Positions 3-32,000 of a stretch of 32,000 nt of DNA are shown here, piece after piece. The notes below the pieces were generated by a model that worked only from the letters and a program-made list of their open reading frames with translations, was not told the origin of the DNA and ran no database searches. Source of the stretch: Candidatus Baldrarchaeum yapensis (GTDB taxonomy: Archaea; Asgardarchaeota; Baldrarchaeia; Baldrarchaeales; Baldrarchaeaceae); contig JAEOSH010000010.1 of NCBI GenBank assembly GCA_016840465.1, forward strand, positions 1 to 32,000, written 5' to 3'. The translations under genes were made by a program, and so were the position numbers. Positions within the stretch are counted from its first letter, which is position 1. Every line of letters starts with the position of its first letter.

Positions 3-147
3 GTGGCTGTCGCTTGCGCTGAACGTGGAGCGGATCGCCACCGGAAAGACGTGCGTGTGATGCGGAAAGGATGAGGCCCGAGGGGGCAGAGACGGACAGC
101 GCCGTTCGGACCAGCGACCGACGCCCCCGGGCCGATGCCTAGCCGTA
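3..147 (+). ncRNA. candidate structured RNA (GC-rich stems; tandem G.A core), possibly truncated by the window edge
   Basis: About 71% GC at 61-147 (hand count), with an abrupt switch to AT-rich sequence at ~148. GGCCCGAGGGGGC (75-87) pairs with GCCCCCGGGCC (123-133), AGG/CCT (68-70/138-140) and TGCGG/CCGTA (61-65/143-147). GTGGC (3-7) pairs with GCCAC (37-41). It does not match a family I recognise. Confidence 0.3.
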
Positions 148-431
148 AGTGTTTATGTTGAATTTATTTATGAAACAGCCTCATACTACGGCAAAAGCAA
201 TTTAAGAAGAGATCATACCCTCTTTTCTCATGTTACACTCGAACGTTGAGGAGTTTCAGCAAGTGGGTGCCGATCTCGTAGAACTCATTTGAAACTATCT
301 ATCGAACGATTCTCATCCCCTCAAAAGGCTAAAATTCGATTTGGTTTATGCGATGAAACCATTTTCAAAAAATATTTAACATGCGACCTAGGAATGAAAG
401 TGCGAGGGGTCACTAAAGGGATGGCAGGAAT

Positions 432-1238
432 ATGCTTAGCGAGGCTGTAATACTGGCGGCCGGAATGGGAACTAGGCTCAGTATCATCAGCAACCAAAGG
501 CCAAAGTTTCTAGTTAAGGTTTTAGGGTGGCCTCTGATTTTCTTCCCGATACTCATGCTTATATCAATCGGAATCTTCAATATAAACATCGTTGTTCCAA
601 AGGGATGGAAGTCCGAGGCAGAGCAAACTCTCAGAAAAATAAAGGCGAACTTCCAAATAATCGAAAATGATGAGCCGCAGAGAGATAACGGGTATAGCTT
701 TCTCCTAAGTAAACAGATTGTTTCAAGTGATAAGTTCCTCCTAACAATGTGTGACCACATTCTGCCACCATCACTAGTCTCCACGTTCATAAACAACTCC
801 CCTCTGGATTCAAACGTGCATGTGCTTGTCGCGGGGGATAAAAGTCCAAGATATATTGATGTTTGCGAGGCTACCCGAATACTGACGGCAAAGGACGACA
901 ACGTGATCAAAATAGGGAAAAATCTTCCCACATTTGACTATATAGACATCGGCCTGTTCATCATCGACAGAAAAACATTCAAGGTAGCAGAGGACCTTGC
1001 ATCGAAAAAATACGTCATTCGACTCTCCGACGTGATAAATGAGCTACTAGATCGGAATTTCATTGTCAAAGTGATCGACATAACAGGTAACCCGTGGACC
1101 GAAATCGATACCGTCAACGACTACTTCAGCGCACACACGGGCAAACGCAGGGAGGTCATAGACATATTTCTAAAGGAGGTCGAGAAGTGTGGCATCGATG
1201 ACAAAGTCAACGGATGGCCCGGTATCGCGGTACATTAA
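432..1238 (+). CDS. ipct: NTP transferase, CTP:inositol-1-phosphate cytidylyltransferase (IPCT)-like
   Basis: AVILAAGMGTRL and PK nucleotidyltransferase signature, LLTMCDH, YIDIGLF and WTEIDT motifs; lies directly upstream of a DIPPS-like gene. Confidence 0.8.
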   Translation: MLSEAVILAAGMGTRLSIISNQRPKFLVKVLGWPLIFFPILMLISIGIFNINIVVPKGWKSEAEQTLRKIKANFQIIENDEPQRDNGYSFLLSKQIVSSDKFLLTMCDHILPPSLVSTFINNSPLDSNVHVLVAGDKSPRYIDVCEATRILTAKDDNVIKIGKNLPTFDYIDIGLFIIDRKTFKVAEDLASKKYVIRLSDVINELLDRNFIVKVIDITGNPWTEIDTVNDYFSAHTGKRREVIDIFLKEVEKCGIDDKVNGWPGIAVH

Positions 1239-21051: not shown

Positions 21052-21320
21052 TTTTTAGTAGCCATATCATTTTTGGAATTCCAGTACCTCTTTTAAAGTT
21101 ATTGGGCAAAAACTAGGTTGTCTTTCAGCAAATTTTTGAAATCATTTTGACAATTACTTAATAGATGTACTAACATTTCACTTTTCGGAGCAAAAGAAGC
21201 TGAAGTAACATTCTTTATCGAAAGATGTCAAAAAATTTGAGAAATATCGTGCAAAAATTGCAAGTGATCTCAAAAATCTTCCAAGCAAGTTAGTCAAGTA
21301 TAATCACTATTCGAAAACTG

Positions 21321-21352
21321 TTATTATTGACGAGTGATTGTGTCAATAGTAA
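21321..21352. repeat. inverted repeat in the divergent dppA / 21730 intergenic region
   Basis: TTATTATTGAC-N10-GTCAATAGTAA, 10 of 11 positions complementary. Confidence 0.5.
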
Positions 21353-21729
21353 TTATGTGTCATGCTGAGTATCGAACACTGTTGCATGGGGGGACTCCTC
21401 ATACTCAAAACACTTTACAGCATTTGTCGTGATATTCCCTTAAGGGAGGGAGTTAAGAGAATTGGCAAAGTTTACACTTGGTATTTCATATTCCTTTGAG
21501 GACGTTCTTTGACGAGATTGTATATGAGGAGGAAAAGAGTCAAGGACATACACATAGGGTGAGCGCTCTTACTGGCATATTGGCATAGAGGGTCATAATA
21601 TCCGAGAAATATCATGTAATTGCCACAGTTATCTCTTCATTATCCGACGATTTTGTCGAGAACGTCCCTTTTGGAAAAGTAAATATAATACATTAGCGAA
21701 CATTTTGCAACAAGTCTTAATTTGGTGAG

Positions 21730-23667
21730 ATGGGATTGCCTCTTTTTAGAAGGAAGAAAGAAAAGGAAATTGCCGAGCCTCCAACGATAGAAGAACTGCT
21801 TGAGGAAAAGAGAGAAACCTTTGCCAAAAGGCCGCGGGAAGCCGAGGGGGCGCTTGCGGTCAGGGTCATAGAAAGAGAGGAAATCGAAATTCGCGATGGA
21901 ACCCCGAATATCATAAGCGAGGAGAGAAGGATAGTCATCGAGAACCTCTCGAAATCCCCCATACTATCCGTGGAGGTCGCATTGAAGGGAGTTGACGCGG
22001 TGAAGCTTGAAAAGGATCGGATAATGATCCCAAGGCTAACCCCCCTCGGCGAGGAGCACAGTTCACACGAAGTCAGGTACAATATTAACATATCGAAGTA
22101 CAGGATCCCAGTAGAGATAAAGTGTGAGACATCTCTCGGGGAGGGGGTGAAAACTCCGGTCCTCCTGTATAATAACGATAACGCTTTGAAATTTAAGTTA
22201 TACATCAAAAACACGACCGACCAGATGCTCGAGGACGTAGTGGTGTTTAAGGAGCTACCATCGGCCGATTGTGAGATCGTAGGCATGAACAAAGAGATCG
22301 GGGATCTAAGGCATGAAGATGACAAGATAGCATGGCAGATTCCGTTAATTGAGGGCAACTCGGAAAGTTCCTGCGAGATAGATCTAAACGTTAGGCCCAG
22401 AACTACGGATCCCGTGGACCTCGGAAACATGATCGTAAATCTGATGTTGGAACGCGCACTCAGCGGTCTGTCGATAGATAGGGTTACCGGAACGGCAAGA
22501 ATATCCCATAGGGTAATTAAAAAGGAGAGAAGGGATGAAGCAGGGATATGGGACATAGAACTTCACGTGATGAACCCGAACGACTTTCCAGTGACGATAG
22601 AGGGAGAAATACTTCCGATGGGAGGAGAAATTTTCATCTCTGAGCACATGGGCGCGCACTACATAAAGGTCGAGGACAACAAGGTGAGGATTTCGGATAT
22701 AACCGTGGATCCCGGTGCCGACGAAACAATCGGTCCTATATCAATAAAATCCATAGCGTTTCCCCCCATGCAGACGAAACTCAGGGCCATAGTTCCAAAA
22801 ACCGTAACGTTCAGGTCAGAGGCAAAGTATATGATTCCCGGTGGGAGAATACCGGTACTGTGGGGAGAAGTTGTAAAGGATATAAGCGTCACGCCTGAGG
22901 AAGCCTACAAGGACTACGTGAGGCAGAACGAAATACCACCACTGGGCAAGTCGACTGTGAGCGTGACGACTAGGTTCACGAATAAAGGAAGTGCACCCGT
23001 CGGCTACCTGAAGATAATCGAGGACCTGCCCCCAGGATTCGATAATGTCAAGGGAGTTAAAGTTAAGGTGAGAGGAAAAGAGGTAAGTGAAGGGATAGAG
23101 TATAAAGTGGCCCCTGAGGGCGTGGGCGTTCAGGAGCGGAGACAACTCATCGTGGAGATAAAGGATTTCGACGGTTATGGAGGCCCCCTGAAGAATGGGG
23201 ACAGCCTCCTCTTGGAATATGATCTGGAGGCAGAAAATCCATTCCCCGGAACTTATGAATTCGGATGCTTCATGCTTGCATCCACAGATCCCGACAATGT
23301 GAAACTCGAAGTATCGTTGCCCAGCGAAAAGATCCCCAGAGTGGAGGTAATAATGCTCGCGCGGGAGATAGAAATCCAACAGGATGTTGTCCCGCTTGAG
23401 GCAATGGACGAGTACGAGGTTGTATTAACCGTGATAAATTCAAGCGAATTCCCAGTACGAAACTATAAGGTCAGAGACCTAGTACCGTCGAGCTTCGATG
23501 TCATAGAGGCCATGCCGAAGGCGGAGGTTAAACGCATCAAGGAAGGCACTATCTTACAATGGGTCATACCCGATATTCCACCCAAGGAGCAAGTTATACT
23601 AAAGTATAGGGTCAAAGGCAAGGGAGGGTACAAAATAGAGGATCTTATCGGAGTAAACGAAGTATAA
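21730..23667 (+). CDS. 645-aa cytoplasmic multi-beta-sandwich protein; N-terminal mu-homology (delta-COP/adaptin-mu)-like domain plus DUF11/Ig-like repeats
   Basis: No signal peptide or TM segment. Recurrent [IVF]xN-x4-[PL]-[IVL]...(E/D)xxP modules at aa ~69, 159, 280, 416 and 568. Aa ~43-254 show a mu-homology-like motif order. The ORF is certain; the fold call is by eye. Confidence 0.6.
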   Translation: MGLPLFRRKKEKEIAEPPTIEELLEEKRETFAKRPREAEGALAVRVIEREEIEIRDGTPNIISEERRIVIENLSKSPILSVEVALKGVDAVKLEKDRIMIPRLTPLGEEHSSHEVRYNINISKYRIPVEIKCETSLGEGVKTPVLLYNNDNALKFKLYIKNTTDQMLEDVVVFKELPSADCEIVGMNKEIGDLRHEDDKIAWQIPLIEGNSESSCEIDLNVRPRTTDPVDLGNMIVNLMLERALSGLSIDRVTGTARISHRVIKKERRDEAGIWDIELHVMNPNDFPVTIEGEILPMGGEIFISEHMGAHYIKVEDNKVRISDITVDPGADETIGPISIKSIAFPPMQTKLRAIVPKTVTFRSEAKYMIPGGRIPVLWGEVVKDISVTPEEAYKDYVRQNEIPPLGKSTVSVTTRFTNKGSAPVGYLKIIEDLPPGFDNVKGVKVKVRGKEVSEGIEYKVAPEGVGVQERRQLIVEIKDFDGYGGPLKNGDSLLLEYDLEAENPFPGTYEFGCFMLASTDPDNVKLEVSLPSEKIPRVEVIMLAREIEIQQDVVPLEAMDEYEVVLTVINSSEFPVRNYKVRDLVPSSFDVIEAMPKAEVKRIKEGTILQWVIPDIPPKEQVILKYRVKGKGGYKIEDLIGVNEV

Positions 23668-26450: not shown

Positions 26451-26954
26451 CTAAGGAGTGAGTTCTAGTACGAACTCGCAGGCATCTCCTCCAGCAGCAC
26501 GACATTTGACCTCATCACACTTTGCCCTCGACATACCCAAGTTTTTGGCTATTTTTTCACAAATTCTTTCCACAGCCCCGGCAAACATCGTGCACATTGG
26601 AATATCCGGAGATGGGGACTCTAGATCTAGGCATAACTTGCATTCTCTTAGTCTGCATCTCACCACAATTCTCTGATCGGATCTTTCAGATGAAATATCA
26701 TCAAATATCTGTCCAACTATGAAATTGAGGAAGTCATTTAGCATTCTCTCGAGATCAGTAACCGTGTGTGGTGCTACCTTTACATGCGACATGAATTCGT
26801 CATATAAAGCATCGGCAATTTTTCTTCCAAATTCCTTAAGTGTGCTCACTACCTCCTCCGCCGCAAGTCCGCTCCCCATGAGATAAGTGACGAACGCCTG
26901 AAGCGCGGCGGTATAACCATACACATTGATTTTATCGACTTTTCTCCAAGACAT
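26451..26954 (-). CDS. V4R-domain protein, Bet3/TRAPP-like
   Basis: ECKLC, PMC and EVKCRAAGGDACEF V4R Cys pattern; LKEFGRKIADALYDEF helix; GAGGTGG SD before ATG 26954. Confidence 0.75.
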   Translation of the reverse strand: MSWRKVDKINVYGYTAALQAFVTYLMGSGLAAEEVVSTLKEFGRKIADALYDEFMSHVKVAPHTVTDLERMLNDFLNFIVGQIFDDISSERSDQRIVVRCRLRECKLCLDLESPSPDIPMCTMFAGAVERICEKIAKNLGMSRAKCDEVKCRAAGGDACEFVLELTP

Positions 26955-26964
26955 GAGCGCCACC

Positions 26965-27489
26965 TCACTTCAATTTGATGTGTGCTCTGTATTCGCAAAC
27001 ATCATCCCCGAGCATTTTGCATTTTACCTCGTCACAGGTAATACTTTCGGCGTTCCAGTCCTCAAGCCTTTGTTCCTCTATCCATTCAAGGACTCCCGCA
27101 AAGAAGAGACAGAATGGAACCTTTATCGGAACCTCCATTCCTCTACAGAAAGGGCAGTCCCGTATCCTGTAAGTTATGTAAACGTCCTTACCCTCCTCCT
27201 TATACTCTATCTTGTCAAAGGGTTTCCCGGTGAAGAACTTGAACCCTAAGTTATAGGTCGGTACAAGGTCCCTGAGGGACTCAGCAGGCCTTTTTGTCGC
27301 TTGTAGATAACGAATATATATAAGTTCACCAGTGTACTTGTATATTTTCTTCAATTCCCTGTAGATGTCATTCGGGTCGGAATATTTCTGCCCTAGGTAT
27401 TCAATGATGCATCGTAAGAAGTGCCTAACGAAGTCCGCGTTTATCTTCTTCGCGACAAATCTCCAGGCAAGCACCCCTTTTATTCCCAA
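26965..27489 (-). CDS. V4R-domain protein, Bet3/TRAPP-like
   Basis: DCPFC, PFC and EVKCKMLGDDVCEY V4R Cys pattern; GAGGTGA SD before TTG 27489. Confidence 0.75.
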   Translation of the reverse strand: MGIKGVLAWRFVAKKINADFVRHFLRCIIEYLGQKYSDPNDIYRELKKIYKYTGELIYIRYLQATKRPAESLRDLVPTYNLGFKFFTGKPFDKIEYKEEGKDVYITYRIRDCPFCRGMEVPIKVPFCLFFAGVLEWIEEQRLEDWNAESITCDEVKCKMLGDDVCEYRAHIKLK

Positions 27490-27704: not shown

Positions 27705-28505
27705 TCACGCCAAGAAAAATTTTCGGAAAAATAACATAAGTATCAGTAAAAAATCTCCCCATACTACTGATAGTAAAAGTCCCATCTCCATGAGTGGAAT
27801 CATTGGAAGCCCCACCATCACCCAGATCACCCGGTAGCCATGATCAATTAAGGACCGTACCCTTTCTCTTCTCTCATTCTCTTCGGAGAACATGAGATTG
27901 TGAAGCCTCCTACATACCGAAATTTCCCCGTTCTTTATTTCAATCATTGGAATTTCCGCTTTTTCGAGGGCTTTCTTCGCATCCACGGGAGTTCCACCAA
28001 TTAACAGAAGCAAGCGCGCCGTCATACTCAAATTTGCAAGAGACCTCCTTACTTCATCATCACGCAATGTTAAGACGAGATTACGGACGAACAGAAGAAG
28101 TGCGACCAAGGACAGCAGTAGAATTGTGTTTGTGAGGACGGGTATTGCAAGCGTTAGTATTGGGATGATCCTAGGGAACTTCGCCAGCGAGATGGACGGC
28201 ACTCTCGGAAAGTAAAGGGCAATAGCTATAAAGGCCAAGGCATCCGCACTTCCTATTGTTTTCAACAATACCAAAATTACCATCAACAACCCTATCAGCG
28301 CGACTGCGAGCGCCTCCATCATTAGAAACTGGAAGATTGTCATTTCGGACGAGTACCTGAGATATGCAAGAATAACCCCAGGTGGGGTCATAAGGATCCA
28401 TGTCAGGTCGTGGACCTCCCTCTTCTTAATATCCTGAATCGATGCCCAAGTGAGAAATAGAAAGCATAGTCCCAACGAGATTGTCTCGAGAGCTTGTGGG
28501 TCCAT
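27705..28505 (-). CDS. archaeal prepilin/preflagellin peptidase (A24, FlaK/PibD-like)
   Basis: IQDIKKREVHD..W (first Asp), IGSADA (GxxD second Asp), WVMVGLPMIP C-terminal motif and multiple TM helices. Confidence 0.88.
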   Translation of the reverse strand: MDPQALETISLGLCFLFLTWASIQDIKKREVHDLTWILMTPPGVILAYLRYSSEMTIFQFLMMEALAVALIGLLMVILVLLKTIGSADALAFIAIALYFPRVPSISLAKFPRIIPILTLAIPVLTNTILLLSLVALLLFVRNLVLTLRDDEVRRSLANLSMTARLLLLIGGTPVDAKKALEKAEIPMIEIKNGEISVCRRLHNLMFSEENERRERVRSLIDHGYRVIWVMVGLPMIPLMEMGLLLSVVWGDFLLILMLFFRKFFLA

Positions 28506-28506
28506 A

Positions 28507-29211
28507 TCAGGCCCTTCTTGCGGTTGATATTCTTATTCCAACCGACGTTATCTCGTATGGTGCGAGTAGCGGAAGTCCTTCAAGCTGCCCGCGTAGTTTT
28601 GGTATATAAAGAATCGGCCTATCCTCGATCACTTGGAGTTCCAGAACACCGTCAGACATGTGATTTATTATTCCCGCGGTCTCCCGTGGTATTGCGTTTC
28701 TAAGGTATGAGAGAATGCAGAGAGACTCCGACTCGTAAAGTTTCGCCTTCAACGAGAATAACAATTTCATGAGGCCCTTATGCGGGGTTCCAAGTAAGAA
28801 GTAAGTCAGAGAATCTATCATTATACACGAACCCTCCTCGAGATGCGGGTAAACATAGAACCGGAATATATTTCGGAGGTCATATGCGAGCAGATTTCTG
28901 CCAATACCCTGCTTTTTCCCAGAAACTACCTCAAATAAGTCCTCAAATACCCACTTCTTGTCGTTAATGAGAGCATTAATGTCGAATCCTATGTCCTTTA
29001 ACTCTTCTATGATCGCCAATGGCGGAGCGTCCACCGCAAGATACACTATCTTTTTACCTCGTGTCCTGATGAAAGAATGCAATAACCTGTGGAGGAAGAC
29101 CCTATGAAGGGATCCAGGATCGAATGGAACCGATATTAGCGATGGTAGCGATATTCCACGTATTCTCGCGTCAAGCACCGAGTATCCGGTTGGCACAATC
29201 AGCCGAACCAC
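28507..29211 (-). CDS. RecA/KaiC (RAD55)-fold protein with a degenerate Walker A
   Basis: PTGYSVLD..I.G N-terminus, P-loop position reads PFDPGSLHR, MIDSLT (Walker B), SDGVLEL and PKLRG. Confidence 0.75.
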   Translation of the reverse strand: MVRLIVPTGYSVLDARIRGISLPSLISVPFDPGSLHRVFLHRLLHSFIRTRGKKIVYLAVDAPPLAIIEELKDIGFDINALINDKKWVFEDLFEVVSGKKQGIGRNLLAYDLRNIFRFYVYPHLEEGSCIMIDSLTYFLLGTPHKGLMKLLFSLKAKLYESESLCILSYLRNAIPRETAGIINHMSDGVLELQVIEDRPILYIPKLRGQLEGLPLLAPYEITSVGIRISTARRA

Positions 29212-29325: not shown

Positions 29326-30285
29326 TTGATGAGGGCAGTCGACGAGTTATTAAAAGCGAAGGTTCTTCTCCCCGCAATAAAAAGGCCTGCGGACTTCGAC
29401 ATCGTCGAATTCTTCTCCGAGTACGGTAGATATATTGCCCATCTTGCCATAGTGATAAAAAACGACCACGGAGAAGTGTTCTACGAAAGTTCGTGTGCGC
29501 CTTGTTCCATGGAGAACGCAAGAAAGTTGAAGACATGCCTCGATCTGGCATCTGCGCTTGATATAGAGTACACGTTCCTGGTTTATTGCTTCTCCGACAC
29601 CGTGCTCAGCAAGAGATTCGGCGTCGTGAGGGAGGGTGTCGAAACCCCTCCCTTCGACTTTCGAAAGTTCATATGCCCGAACAAGCCGGAGTACAGGCAG
29701 TATTTATCTGAGATAATCAGAGAAATCGAGGAATTGAGACCTTCCTCAATAGTCCTCATGGATGTCCGCTACCCGTGGAGGAACTTCTGCTTCTGTAAGA
29801 GATGTAGATCGGAGTTCGCAGAATACGCGGGCTCCCCCACCATACTCACATCATCCCACTACCTTCTTGAGGTTCTTCAGCAATACGAGCAATACTATGA
29901 GATGTGGCTGGAATGGAGGTCCAAAGTTGTTTCAGAAGCGCTCGCGGAAATATTATCGAAAAAGAAGGAAGGGATACCCGTATATGTTGAGATAATTCTC
30001 GATCCTGTATCGGAAATGTATAAGGGTCTTGTGGAGTTCTTCGCTCAGGACATAGAGAAAATGGCCCAATTTGTGGATGGGTTTATGGTTAACCTGTTCC
30101 CTTACAGTGGTGTGCCAAACGAAAGAGTGACAATCGAAATTCTCGAGCCTCTTTTAGCGACAAACAAGGATGTGCGCATCTTTTACGAGGGGAAAATCGA
30201 TGATAGGGCGATAAAGGTCCTGAGATACATTTCCAGCAAACTGGAGTCCGAAAGGGTATTTATAAATATCGGGGGACAGAAATAA
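29326..30285 (+). CDS. putative glycoside-hydrolase-like TIM-barrel protein
   Basis: FICPNKPEYR, VLMDVRYP, CFCKRCRSEF and WLEWR motifs resemble GH-like (DUF4015/GHL-type) barrels; no signal peptide. Confidence 0.55.
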   Translation: MMRAVDELLKAKVLLPAIKRPADFDIVEFFSEYGRYIAHLAIVIKNDHGEVFYESSCAPCSMENARKLKTCLDLASALDIEYTFLVYCFSDTVLSKRFGVVREGVETPPFDFRKFICPNKPEYRQYLSEIIREIEELRPSSIVLMDVRYPWRNFCFCKRCRSEFAEYAGSPTILTSSHYLLEVLQQYEQYYEMWLEWRSKVVSEALAEILSKKKEGIPVYVEIILDPVSEMYKGLVEFFAQDIEKMAQFVDGFMVNLFPYSGVPNERVTIEILEPLLATNKDVRIFYEGKIDDRAIKVLRYISSKLESERVFINIGGQK

Positions 30286-30305: not shown

Positions 30306-31091
30306 ATGAAAGAAGTATATAAATTCGGGATACCCGCGCTCGACGAGGCCCTTGGCGGTGGCTACGTCGATGGGAGTATAGTTTTGGTGGAGGACGAGAT
30401 GGGAATTCCTAGTGAGGTTCTTCTCGCTCACTTTATCGTTCAGGGGTTGCGGAGCGGTGACGACATTATCGTTCTCCTGAGTGAACACCCCATATCCTAC
30501 TACATCGCACTCATAAATCTCCTCGGATTTAACGCTGAAATGGCAATAAAAATGGGCAGGCTTGTCTTCATAGATGCGATGTTAAACCCCTTTGTCGCAG
30601 GAAAAAGGGTTCCTTACTACAGCAAATACGCGGTCAGGAACGTAGGAAGTATTAGTGAAGTCAGGCAAGCACTGCAGAGCGCAATCCAAGAACTGAAAGA
30701 ACCCCAAAAACTCAGAATAGTAATAGACTCTCTTTCGCAGTTTCTCCCACCGCTTGTACAAAACCCCCAGCAAGTCGTCATCTTTCTACAACAACAAATG
30801 GTAGAGCGTAAAGAGAGGGGCGGCGTATTCATGGCGCTCCTCCATAGAGACTGCCACGAGCCTCAGATCATAAAGTCGGTAGAATACATTGTGGACAGTG
30901 TGATATCGCTAGAGAGGGTTAAGACGGAAGCCGGTAAACCCGCGGAAATAATACTCAGGTTCCTGAAACACGATGACCTCGTGCTCTTCGAAAAACTACA
31001 AAATCAATCGTTCATCTATAAGTTCGAAGGCGGAAAACTGGCGGTTTATGAAATGGGCAAAATTCCGTTGAGAACAGATCTAGGGTGGTAG
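30306..31091 (+). CDS. RecA/KaiC-fold protein with a degenerate Walker A, Elp4/Elp6-like
   Basis: FGIPALDEALGGG...GSIVLVE, P-loop position reads EDEMGIPSE, GRLVFID, RIVIDSLS and VDSVISL. Confidence 0.75.
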   Translation: MKEVYKFGIPALDEALGGGYVDGSIVLVEDEMGIPSEVLLAHFIVQGLRSGDDIIVLLSEHPISYYIALINLLGFNAEMAIKMGRLVFIDAMLNPFVAGKRVPYYSKYAVRNVGSISEVRQALQSAIQELKEPQKLRIVIDSLSQFLPPLVQNPQQVVIFLQQQMVERKERGGVFMALLHRDCHEPQIIKSVEYIVDSVISLERVKTEAGKPAEIILRFLKHDDLVLFEKLQNQSFIYKFEGGKLAVYEMGKIPLRTDLGW

Positions 31092-31092
31092 C

Positions 31093-32000
31093 ATGGAAGC
31101 ACGGAGGGCAATTCTTAGAATGCTAGAAGAGGTAAGGAAAAAGAGGGACGAGATAAGGAATTCCTTTTCGGAAAGGCTCACCGGAATAATAAGGAAGACA
31201 ATATCGCCATCAAAGCCTACCTTTTCGTACCATGAGGTTACATCGCTCGCCGAGGAGATGAAGCAACACTTGATAGCAAACTTCAATGCCGTGTTCGACG
31301 AAATACTCAACAGTATAATGCCCGTGCTAATAGCAGTTGCCGGGGACGAAGTCAAAGTGCCCGAGGATCTGTTGCGACGGCAGAGAATGTACGTCGAGAT
31401 GGAAAGAACACTAAATGAGGTTATCAAACTAATATCTCAGGGGATGAATCGGGAGGTCTCCCTTGATAACCTGACGGATCAGATCAAGGAACTCGTGAAC
31501 AGCGTAAAAGTAATACCTCAGATGAAAGTGACGATTGACGAGCGCAATCAGAAGGTTTCCGAACTCATGGAAGAATTGAGGAAGAGAGACGAAGAATTGA
31601 GGAGGATGGAGCAAAAACTGGAGAAGTTAAAGGGAGACTACAACGCTCTTAACGAAGAAAGAGCCAGAATTTTGAGGATGCTTGAGGACAGGGGGAAGAA
31701 ACTGGAGGAGATGAGCCGAAAGGTAAAAGAACTCGAGGAGCGAAACAAAATGTTAGAGACGGAAAGGGAAGACTTGGGAAAGCGCATCAAGGAGATGGAG
31801 GAAAGGTTCGAGGAGGAGAGAAAGTCCTTAGATGAGCGCATGAGAAAATTACTCGAGGAAAGGATGAAGCTAGTTGAGGAAAACAACAGGTTGAAAAATG
31901 AACTCGTCGAGAAGAGCACGATAATCGACGACCTTAGTAGGAAAATCTCCGACCTCGAGGGAGAGGTAAAGAGATACGAGATGATGAAATTAACACTTGA
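31093..32000 (+). CDS. long coiled-coil protein, 3'-truncated by the window end (absent from the ORF track)
   Basis: Hand translation from ATG 31093 is open for 302 codons to the window edge: MEARRAILRMLEEV..., then E/K/R/L heptads from ~aa 150 (e.g. ELRRMEQKLEKLKGDYNALNEER). It starts 1 nt after the upstream stop. Confidence 0.85.
   Translation, partial: MEARRAILRMLEEVRKKRDEIRNSFSERLTGIIRKTISPSKPTFSYHEVTSLAEEMKQHLIANFNAVFDEILNSIMPVLIAVAGDEVKVPEDLLRRQRMYVEMERTLNEVIKLISQGMNREVSLDNLTDQIKELVNSVKVIPQMKVTIDERNQKVSELMEELRKRDEELRRMEQKLEKLKGDYNALNEERARILRMLEDRGKKLEEMSRKVKELEERNKMLETEREDLGKRIKEMEERFEEERKSLDERMRKLLEERMKLVEENNRLKNELVEKSTIIDDLSRKISDLEGEVKRYEMMKLTL

Follow-up and report, generated by a model that had tools for sequence, protein, structure and literature searches.

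The mu-homology domain (MHD) is the cargo- or partner-binding module of clathrin adaptors, COPI, TSET and the muniscins. In every case characterised, the MHD mediates protein interactions at membranes: in mu1 to mu4 it binds YxxPhi cargo signals and PIP2, in delta-COP it binds WxW motifs, and in muniscins it binds DPF motifs. The origin of the domain bears on how eukaryotic vesicle traffic began. The subject of this article is an archaeal gene whose product is predicted to contain a complete MHD. It lies in a stretch of 32,000 nucleotides from Candidatus Baldrarchaeum yapensis (Asgardarchaeota; GenBank assembly GCA_016840465.1, contig JAEOSH010000010.1, positions 1 to 32,000), called the window below. 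The open reading frame (ORF) occupies 21730-23667 (+), stop included, and its translation is a protein of 645 residues, P0001.

Proteins of this kind have been listed before. Eme et al. 2023 (Nature 618:992, PMC10307638, Suppl. Info 4.3.1, Table S3) reported 44 Asgard candidates for the Pfam family PF00928 (Adap_comp_sub) and described their 'sparse distribution', with no structural analysis. In that survey the domain is never fused to Clat_adaptor_s, and all five domain types of the adaptor protein (AP) complexes are found scattered across Asgard archaea. Makarova et al. 2024 (bioRxiv 10.1101/2024.02.06.579148) described adaptin-appendage-like IG/TBP domains in archaeal ESCRT loci and proposed that they act as interaction hubs. 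Literature searches found no paper on structural analysis of archaeal MHDs.

The Baldrarchaeum protein is a divergent paralogue, missed by Pfam, in the archaeal family to which the listed Asgard Adap_comp_sub candidates belong. This assignment of fold and family is very probably right. The protein as a whole is best explained, with a fair degree of probability, as a genuine MHD followed by a pilin- or cohesin-like sandwich and a DUF11 sandwich, perhaps serving as a membrane scaffold.

Predicted structure

The whole protein was modelled with AlphaFold2 from a 26-sequence alignment, and residues 372-645 were modelled separately. The whole-protein model has a mean pLDDT of 89 and a pTM of 0.69, and it is predicted to contain five beta-sandwich modules. 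When the model was compared with the PDB by Foldseek, long multi-Ig proteins came out on top with meaningless superpositions (root-mean-square deviation, rmsd, about 40 Å). They were followed by AP-2 mu2 chains, with E about 1e-8, rmsd about 5.5 Å and a TM-score by target of 0.55-0.65.

Re-alignment of the Foldseek matches with VIA-align left MHDs in all of the top 50 places. The best score, 18.4, belongs to the mu2 chain 5wrk_A, in which 220 of 245 residues superpose with an rmsd of 3.1 Å (model 39..371 on chain 170..435). Next come mu4 (17.6), delta-COP (15.7-16.4), mu1 (16.2), mu3 (15.7), SGIP1 (14.0) and yeast delta-COP (13.9). An exhaustive scan of 48,161 PDB representatives likewise placed MHDs in the first nine ranks.

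An MHD consists of two interleaved subdomains, and the preliminary description of this sequence had expected the same of any model. Each alignment covers the MHD from its first residue to its last, which means that the chain returns to subdomain A, as interleaving requires. The last aligned model residue is 370-373 in every MHD match and corresponds to the end of the MHD chain (mu2 435, delta-COP 511). The model therefore has the B sandwich inserted in the A sandwich, with the chain coming back to A at its C-terminus. The region first flagged, residues 43-254, falls inside this domain, which extends further than had been described, from residue 39 to 371.

Residues 39-371 of the model number 333, of which only 220 find an equivalent in mu2. 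In addition, Pfam matches in relatives end at about position 236 of 259, and in two single-domain matches, CLIPPER 9ifr and the alpha2-macroglobulin receptor-binding domain 1ayo, some 120 residues align over model 123..377. Taken together, these observations point to an insertion of about 90 residues (257-345) within the MHD. The insertion, whose boundaries are putative, probably contributes to a third sandwich, formed jointly with strand 128-136 and the return strands. It holds three of the six residues that are invariant in the family (Trp274, Asn282 and Pro345), and these are the only invariant residues in that half of the domain. In the N-terminal part of subdomain A, Glu48 is invariant and Asn72 and Tyr117 are nearly so.

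Sequence evidence

Six motifs had been read from the sequence as the succession characteristic of an MHD. All six are present in that order at residues 43-254 in the translation of 21730-23664 (+), with residue 43 falling exactly at nucleotide 21856 and residue 254 at 22491. For the later motifs the likeness goes beyond chance. The Adap_comp_sub profile matches residues 117-227 with its positions 101-204 (E 3.9e-4), although at 20.3 bits the match is under the gathering cut-off of 31.6 bits.

Adap_comp_sub is matched by 7 of the 26 aligned family members, and several relatives pass the cut-off. These include P0003, the paralogue in the same genome (contig C42), at 34.2 bits, P0034 at 39.6 bits, P0100 at 40.7 bits, and P0023 at 40.9 bits, with almost all of the domain covered (profile positions 12-236 of 259). 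Homologues that pass PF00928 are tied to the Baldrarchaeum protein at E values of 1e-28 to 1e-97. Since the protein itself is under the cut-off and these homologues are over it, membership in PF00928 by sequence is transitive, not direct.

A profile of the family was also run against 177,635 distinct PDB sequences. Of 28 matches, 22 are AP mu or delta-COP chains, and the other six are gamma-adaptin ear chains and one ribosomal protein. The first 21 ranks are taken by the mu chains of AP-3, AP-1 and AP-2 (best E 6.4e-4), followed by gamma-adaptin ear and delta-COP. With a profile of the N-terminal half, and E values up to 10 accepted, mu or delta-COP accounts for 21 of 22 matches. A profile of the clade with long N-termini (A4) does less well than the mixed profile, finding AP-3 mu at E 0.5.

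The region aligned in these matches is subdomain B and the 'SGL' strand, the only part of the MHD that can be recognised from sequence; the alignments reach mu3A 291-395 and mu2 298-402, SGL motif included. A profile of residues 38-145, in subdomain A, retrieved no mu chain from the PDB, with E <= 10 accepted. The first two of the six motifs (residues 43-77) consequently lack statistical support from sequence, and their place in the domain depends on the structural alignment, which begins at residue 39. Between them, the weak Pfam match, the family profile and the ranking in the structure scan argue for the MHD fold that the preliminary description had proposed from the predicted translation.

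The C-terminal module is recognised directly. DUF11 (PF01345) matches residues 550-630 with 39.2 bits (E 9.6e-10), over its gathering score of 24.6 bits, and it is matched by 22 of the 26 family members.

Two further statements about the protein held up. It has no longin domain, as there is no PF01217 match in it and only 38 residues precede the MHD. It also has no signal peptide: a hydrophobic h-region is absent, so the N-terminus is not a signal of the Sec or the Tat type, and no transmembrane segment was found by hydropathy anywhere in the protein (maximum KD19 1.07). A transmembrane-like segment is likewise absent in 147 of 152 family matches. With a net charge of -24 and four cysteines, we read the protein as cytoplasmic, soluble and acidic.

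Family and distribution

A word-indexed protein search returned nothing besides the protein itself. Among 1.84 billion cluster representatives, searched exhaustively with HMMER, there are 205 relatives at E <= 1e-3, of which 17 reach E <= 1e-30. The majority are full-length and have 600-750 residues.

Across the sampled phylum the family is nearly universal. Of 251 sampled Asgardarchaeota genomes searched with a profile, 227 have it, in 59 of 63 genera, and so do 78 of the 89 high-quality genomes. There are one to six matches per genome, mostly as single ORFs that match over the whole profile, and in roughly 210 genomes (counted from the results table) the best match has E < 1e-30. The family was not found in two families with small genomes that were searched (0 of 4 and 0 of 3 genomes).

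In a quick maximum-likelihood tree built from 90 representatives, the Baldrarchaeum protein falls in a clade of 17 members (SH-aLRT 100). This clade is the one least seen by Pfam, with sub-threshold matches from the protein itself and P0015 only. Ten of the 17 members begin with an aromatic residue and a run of basic residues. The paralogue P0003 belongs to a different clade, whose 24 members nearly all start straight with the MHD.

Other clades carry an N-terminal extension of 110-140 residues. In one large clade (P0023, P0026, P0028 and P0029, about 700 residues each) there is an N-terminal domain of about 80 residues, with the motif W.F.FG.veL ... EK.Y, followed by a linker. P0051 (683 residues) has an N-terminal transmembrane helix in place of the polybasic start, and in P0037 (739 residues) N-terminal HEAT repeats are fused to the MHD (HEAT_2, E 1e-16). 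A longin identity of the extensions was considered and rejected, as Pfam gave only marginal matches to Cylicin_N (E 0.078) and IMD (E 0.0035), besides HEAT in one protein.

Possible function

A role in a coat or as an adaptor, suggested in the preliminary description, is a putative function. The mechanism favoured here is a peripheral-membrane scaffold, proposed because every MHD characterised so far works with partner proteins at membranes. The N-terminal aromatic-polybasic motif (F-RRKK) would keep the protein at the membrane's anionic inner face. The chain starts LFRRKK, and its first 38 residues are modelled at low pLDDT (47-70). A start of F or W followed by three to five R or K recurs in P0005, P0006, P0007, P0010, P0011, P0012, P0015, P0019 and others. 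In relatives that lack it, a transmembrane helix or another N-terminal handle would do the tethering. Partner proteins would be bound, through short linear motifs or domains of theirs, by the MHD and both C-terminal sandwiches. The protein would thus be a stand-alone hub, like the MHD of a muniscin, and neither the medium subunit of a tetramer of the AP or COPI kind nor a reader of YxxPhi signals. Taken by itself, this mechanism is tentative, and somewhat doubtful.

Several observations weigh against the membrane scaffold. Residues 1-38 have a net charge of only +1, the polybasic motif being followed by an acidic stretch that weakens the case for a simple electrostatic anchor. The Asp that grips the tyrosine in the pocket of mu2 also appears not to be conserved. 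The pocket residues of mu2 are F174, D176, K203, W421 and R423; with model residue 39 set at mu2 170 and Glu48 taken as mu2 E179, D176 would fall on Arg45 and F174 on Ala43. Because the apparent equivalent of D176 is an arginine in a column that varies across the family (R, E, K, N, D and others), reading of YxxPhi signals is unlikely.

The genome and the gene's surroundings add to this. In the genome (2.27 Mb, 96% complete) Clat_adaptor_s (PF01217) has no match, a search that was silent in the control genomes too, and Adaptin_N (PF01602) has only an 18.2-bit match. Among 22 loci taken from many of the phylum's families there is no shared GTPase, ESCRT or adaptin-like neighbour, and the MHD gene adjoins no such gene in the window or in the 21 other loci. 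The neighbours that do recur are a hydrolase of the metallo-beta-lactamase fold and a GHL-like TIM barrel. Finally, in many relatives DUF11 and Adap_comp_sub both match one and the same stretch, and together with look-alikes outside the phylum, described below, this overlap implies that the fold need not go with a eukaryote-like role.

The same points support the main rival of the scaffold, a rival that we give about one chance in four. The protein may be a generic archaeal multi-sandwich protein of the DUF11/CLIPPER type; its MHD-like arrangement would be an architecture long present in archaea, doing a job outside trafficking, for example as a cytoplasmic structural, chaperone-like or envelope-assembly factor. 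Its likeness to eukaryotic adaptors would then reflect shared fold ancestry only, or even convergence. The double matching of DUF11 and Adap_comp_sub, the whole-protein look-alikes predicted outside the phylum, the searches that found no conserved trafficking neighbours, no sigma/longin subunit and no adaptin trunk, and the apparently unconserved pocket aspartate all suit it. It accounts less well for the recovery of all MHD families in the PDB, end to end and above all other folds, for PDB sequence matches that are essentially mu and delta-COP only, or for relatives that exceed the Pfam cut-off across most of the profile. As characterised MHDs are without exception membrane protein-interaction modules, a related activity is also the simplest expectation.

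It is improbable that the protein selects cargo as a subunit of an archaeal proto-coat, in the manner of AP mu or delta-COP, and sorts membrane proteins into buds with adaptin-like subunits and small GTPases. The modelled MHD is complete, all five AP domain types occur scattered in Asgard archaea (Eme et al. 2023), and P0037 shows HEAT repeats fused to the domain. The genome also has ESCRT-I VPS28 (60 bits; the 14 control genomes gave no match) and 12 matches to Arf-family-like GTPases, in keeping with its Asgard (Baldrarchaeia) placement; a profilin search was silent in it, and equally so in all controls. Against such a subunit stand the missing longin domain, the want of a PF01217 match in the genome (subject to the silence of the controls), of a real Adaptin_N match and of GTPase, ESCRT or adaptin-like neighbours at any of the loci, and the YxxPhi pocket, whose residues are apparently not kept.

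Least probable of all is a secreted or surface adhesin-like protein using an unrecognised export route, as might be supposed from C-terminal modules like Gram-positive pilins, cohesins and the CLIPPER adhesin domain and from the mostly extracellular nature of bacterial DUF11 proteins, since it is at odds with the absence of a signal peptide or transmembrane segment, with a start codon that cannot be moved upstream, with the same lack of a hydrophobic segment in nearly all relatives, with the conserved charged polybasic and acidic N-terminus, and with a strongly acidic protein that has only four cysteines.

Gene and genomic context

The features of the gene are collected in Table 1. The earliest start codon past the upstream stop is the ATG at 21730. 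An A/T-rich, TATA-like box, taaatataata, is found at 21680-21690, 40-50 nucleotides 5' of the ATG, and GGTGA stands directly 5' of it at 21724-21728. Together they form a putative promoter and ribosome-binding region.

Table 1. Features of the MHD gene, with positions in the window and residue numbers of the protein.
Feature	Position	Strand	Basis
Whole gene	21730..23667	+	ORF list and translation; full-length homologues of about 600-750 residues
Putative promoter and ribosome-binding region	21680..21728	+	read from the sequence
N-terminal aromatic-polybasic motif (MGLPLFRRKKEKEI), then acidic linker and short helix (residues 20-33)	21730..21771	+	recurs in subfamily
MHD subdomain A, N-terminal part (residues 39-140)	21844..22149	+	mu2 structural alignment, model 39 = mu2 170
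MHD subdomain B and 'SGL' strand (residues 141-256)	22150..22497	+	Pfam and profile alignments to mu3A/mu2
Insertion of about 90 residues inside the MHD (residues 257-345)	22498..22764	+	partial mu2 alignment; invariant columns; boundaries inferred
Return strands closing subdomain A (residues 346-371)	22765..22842	+	ends of MHD alignments
Fourth module, large beta-sandwich of pilin (SpaD, BcpA, RrgB)/cohesin type (residues 375-543)	22852..23358	+	
Fifth module, DUF11/CLIPPER Ig-like, with faint adaptin-ear (gamma-adaptin ear, GAE) sequence echoes (residues 545-645)	23362..23664	+	

The MHD gene is flanked by a divergent operon for an Opp-type ABC peptide transporter and, on the same strand, by genes for an AMP-binding ligase and a Sir2 deacetylase. 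The space that separates the MHD gene from the divergent gene for the Opp binding protein (21052-21729) is unusually long, at 678 bp; it has no Rfam match, like the rest of the window, and no recorded ORF of at least 50 residues.

The hydrolase of the metallo-beta-lactamase fold, about 235 residues long, lies directly upstream in the same orientation in 9 of the 22 loci (L026-L034, several families). It is found beside neither copy of the MHD gene in the Baldrarchaeum genome, where the two paralogues are the only PF00928-like proteins. The GHL-like protein has about 320-350 residues and faint matches to glycoside-hydrolase-like TIM barrels (GHL10, GHL6 and GHL13, E 0.003-0.04). Its gene overlaps the stop codon of P0003 by 4 nt and is translationally coupled to it (L019:9743-10741, contig C42). 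It adjoins an MHD gene in one other genome (L035:8984-10048), and in the window a homologue lies 6 kb downstream of the MHD gene, at 29326-30285 (+). A weak functional link between the two genes is possible.

On a metagenome contig with P0100, an Arf/Ras-type GTPase gene (L040:2562-3599) stands two genes upstream of the MHD-family gene, a single case that formed no pattern among the 22 loci. Just past the window, a 387-residue ORF has an Arf-family GTPase domain with 76.5 bits (contig C54:34125-34538).

Elsewhere in the window there is a tandem pair of V4R-domain proteins (26451-26963 (-) and 26965-27489 (-)), adjoined by a gene for an archaeal type IV prepilin peptidase (A24; 27705-28505). 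Two KaiC/RecA-like ATPases lie on either side of the GHL-like gene (28507-29211 (-) and 30306-31091 (+)), and one of the two has matches of the Elongator Elp4/Elp6/Iki1 kind. After them comes a long coiled-coil protein (31093-31998 (+)) that runs past the window end.

Comparison with known systems

The ORF and the medium subunits of AP-2 (mu2) and of AP-1, AP-3, AP-4 and AP-5 have the MHD in common, but those subunits begin with a longin domain. Without one, the protein is not an orthologue of AP mu or delta-COP. Set beside AP mu's C-terminal domain, it has the extra insertion of about 90 residues and two more sandwiches at its C-terminus, and where AP mu has the tyrosine-pocket Asp (mu2 D176), it apparently has Arg45, which is not conserved in the family. 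No partner subunits of an AP mu were found in the genome by the PF01217 and PF01602 searches, the former being silent in the controls too.

In muniscins (FCHo, SGIP1 and Syp1) the MHD is C-terminal, behind an F-BAR domain and a linker, whereas here it stands at the N-terminus, with Ig-like domains after it. We know of no ligand of the WxW or DPF type for the protein, and none can be predicted. The domains of Makarova et al. 2024 resemble it in that they too are archaeal sandwiches akin to parts of adaptors in eukaryotes. They differ in that they are appendage IG/TBP domains encoded in ESCRT loci, while the gene described here encodes an MHD and lies outside such loci.

Very similar architectures are predicted in other archaea. 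In a structure search of the Swiss-Prot part of the AlphaFold database (AFDB), Methanocaldococcus jannaschii MJ1393 (E 4e-19) and Archaeoglobus fulgidus AF_2028 (E 4e-16) came first, and MJ1394 was also found. Four AFDB clusters named 'DUF11 domain-containing' match at E 1e-38 to 1e-45. Clusters in the ESM Atlas reach a TM-score of 0.65 over 502 aligned residues (rmsd 4.6 Å); Thermoplasmatota is the commonest known phylum among them, the phylum being known for some members only. The module order of these proteins is that of the ORF over at least 500 residues, although they come from outside Asgardarchaeota and the likeness is one between predicted models only. No paper on MJ1393 or AF_2028 was found in literature searches.

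These look-alikes allow a broader reading, which is speculative and rather unlikely. The MHD would be neither a eukaryotic nor an Asgard invention but would go back to an ancient elaboration, in archaea, of DUF11/CLIPPER-type sandwiches, and the Asgard family would be the direct source of all eukaryotic MHDs, already a membrane-proximal, motif-binding sorting hub before fusion to a longin domain made the mu subunit. The several old paralogous clades of that family carry differing N-terminal handles for a membrane or a partner: a polybasic motif, a transmembrane helix, a small N-terminal domain or HEAT repeats. The look-alikes also caution against taking the fold as proof of eukaryote-like trafficking, and they offer proteins that can be tested in culturable hosts, namely Methanocaldococcus, Archaeoglobus and cultured Asgard strains.

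The closest comparison is with the candidates of Eme et al. 2023. They very probably belong to the same family, as relatives of the ORF, P0003 included, pass the PF00928 criterion used there, and the first candidate listed, a Jordarchaeia protein, has motifs in common with the P0003 clade, as judged by eye. In both cases the domain occurs without fusion to Clat_adaptor_s. Unlike those candidates, the ORF belongs to a separate and more divergent clade, and at about 20 bits a Pfam screen would miss it. Beyond the published listing, there is now a high-confidence model of the complete MHD fold in such a missed Asgard protein, set within a family that was called sparse and is found here in nearly all sampled genomes of the phylum, in old clades with different N-terminal handles, and with counterparts of very similar predicted architecture in non-Asgard archaea.

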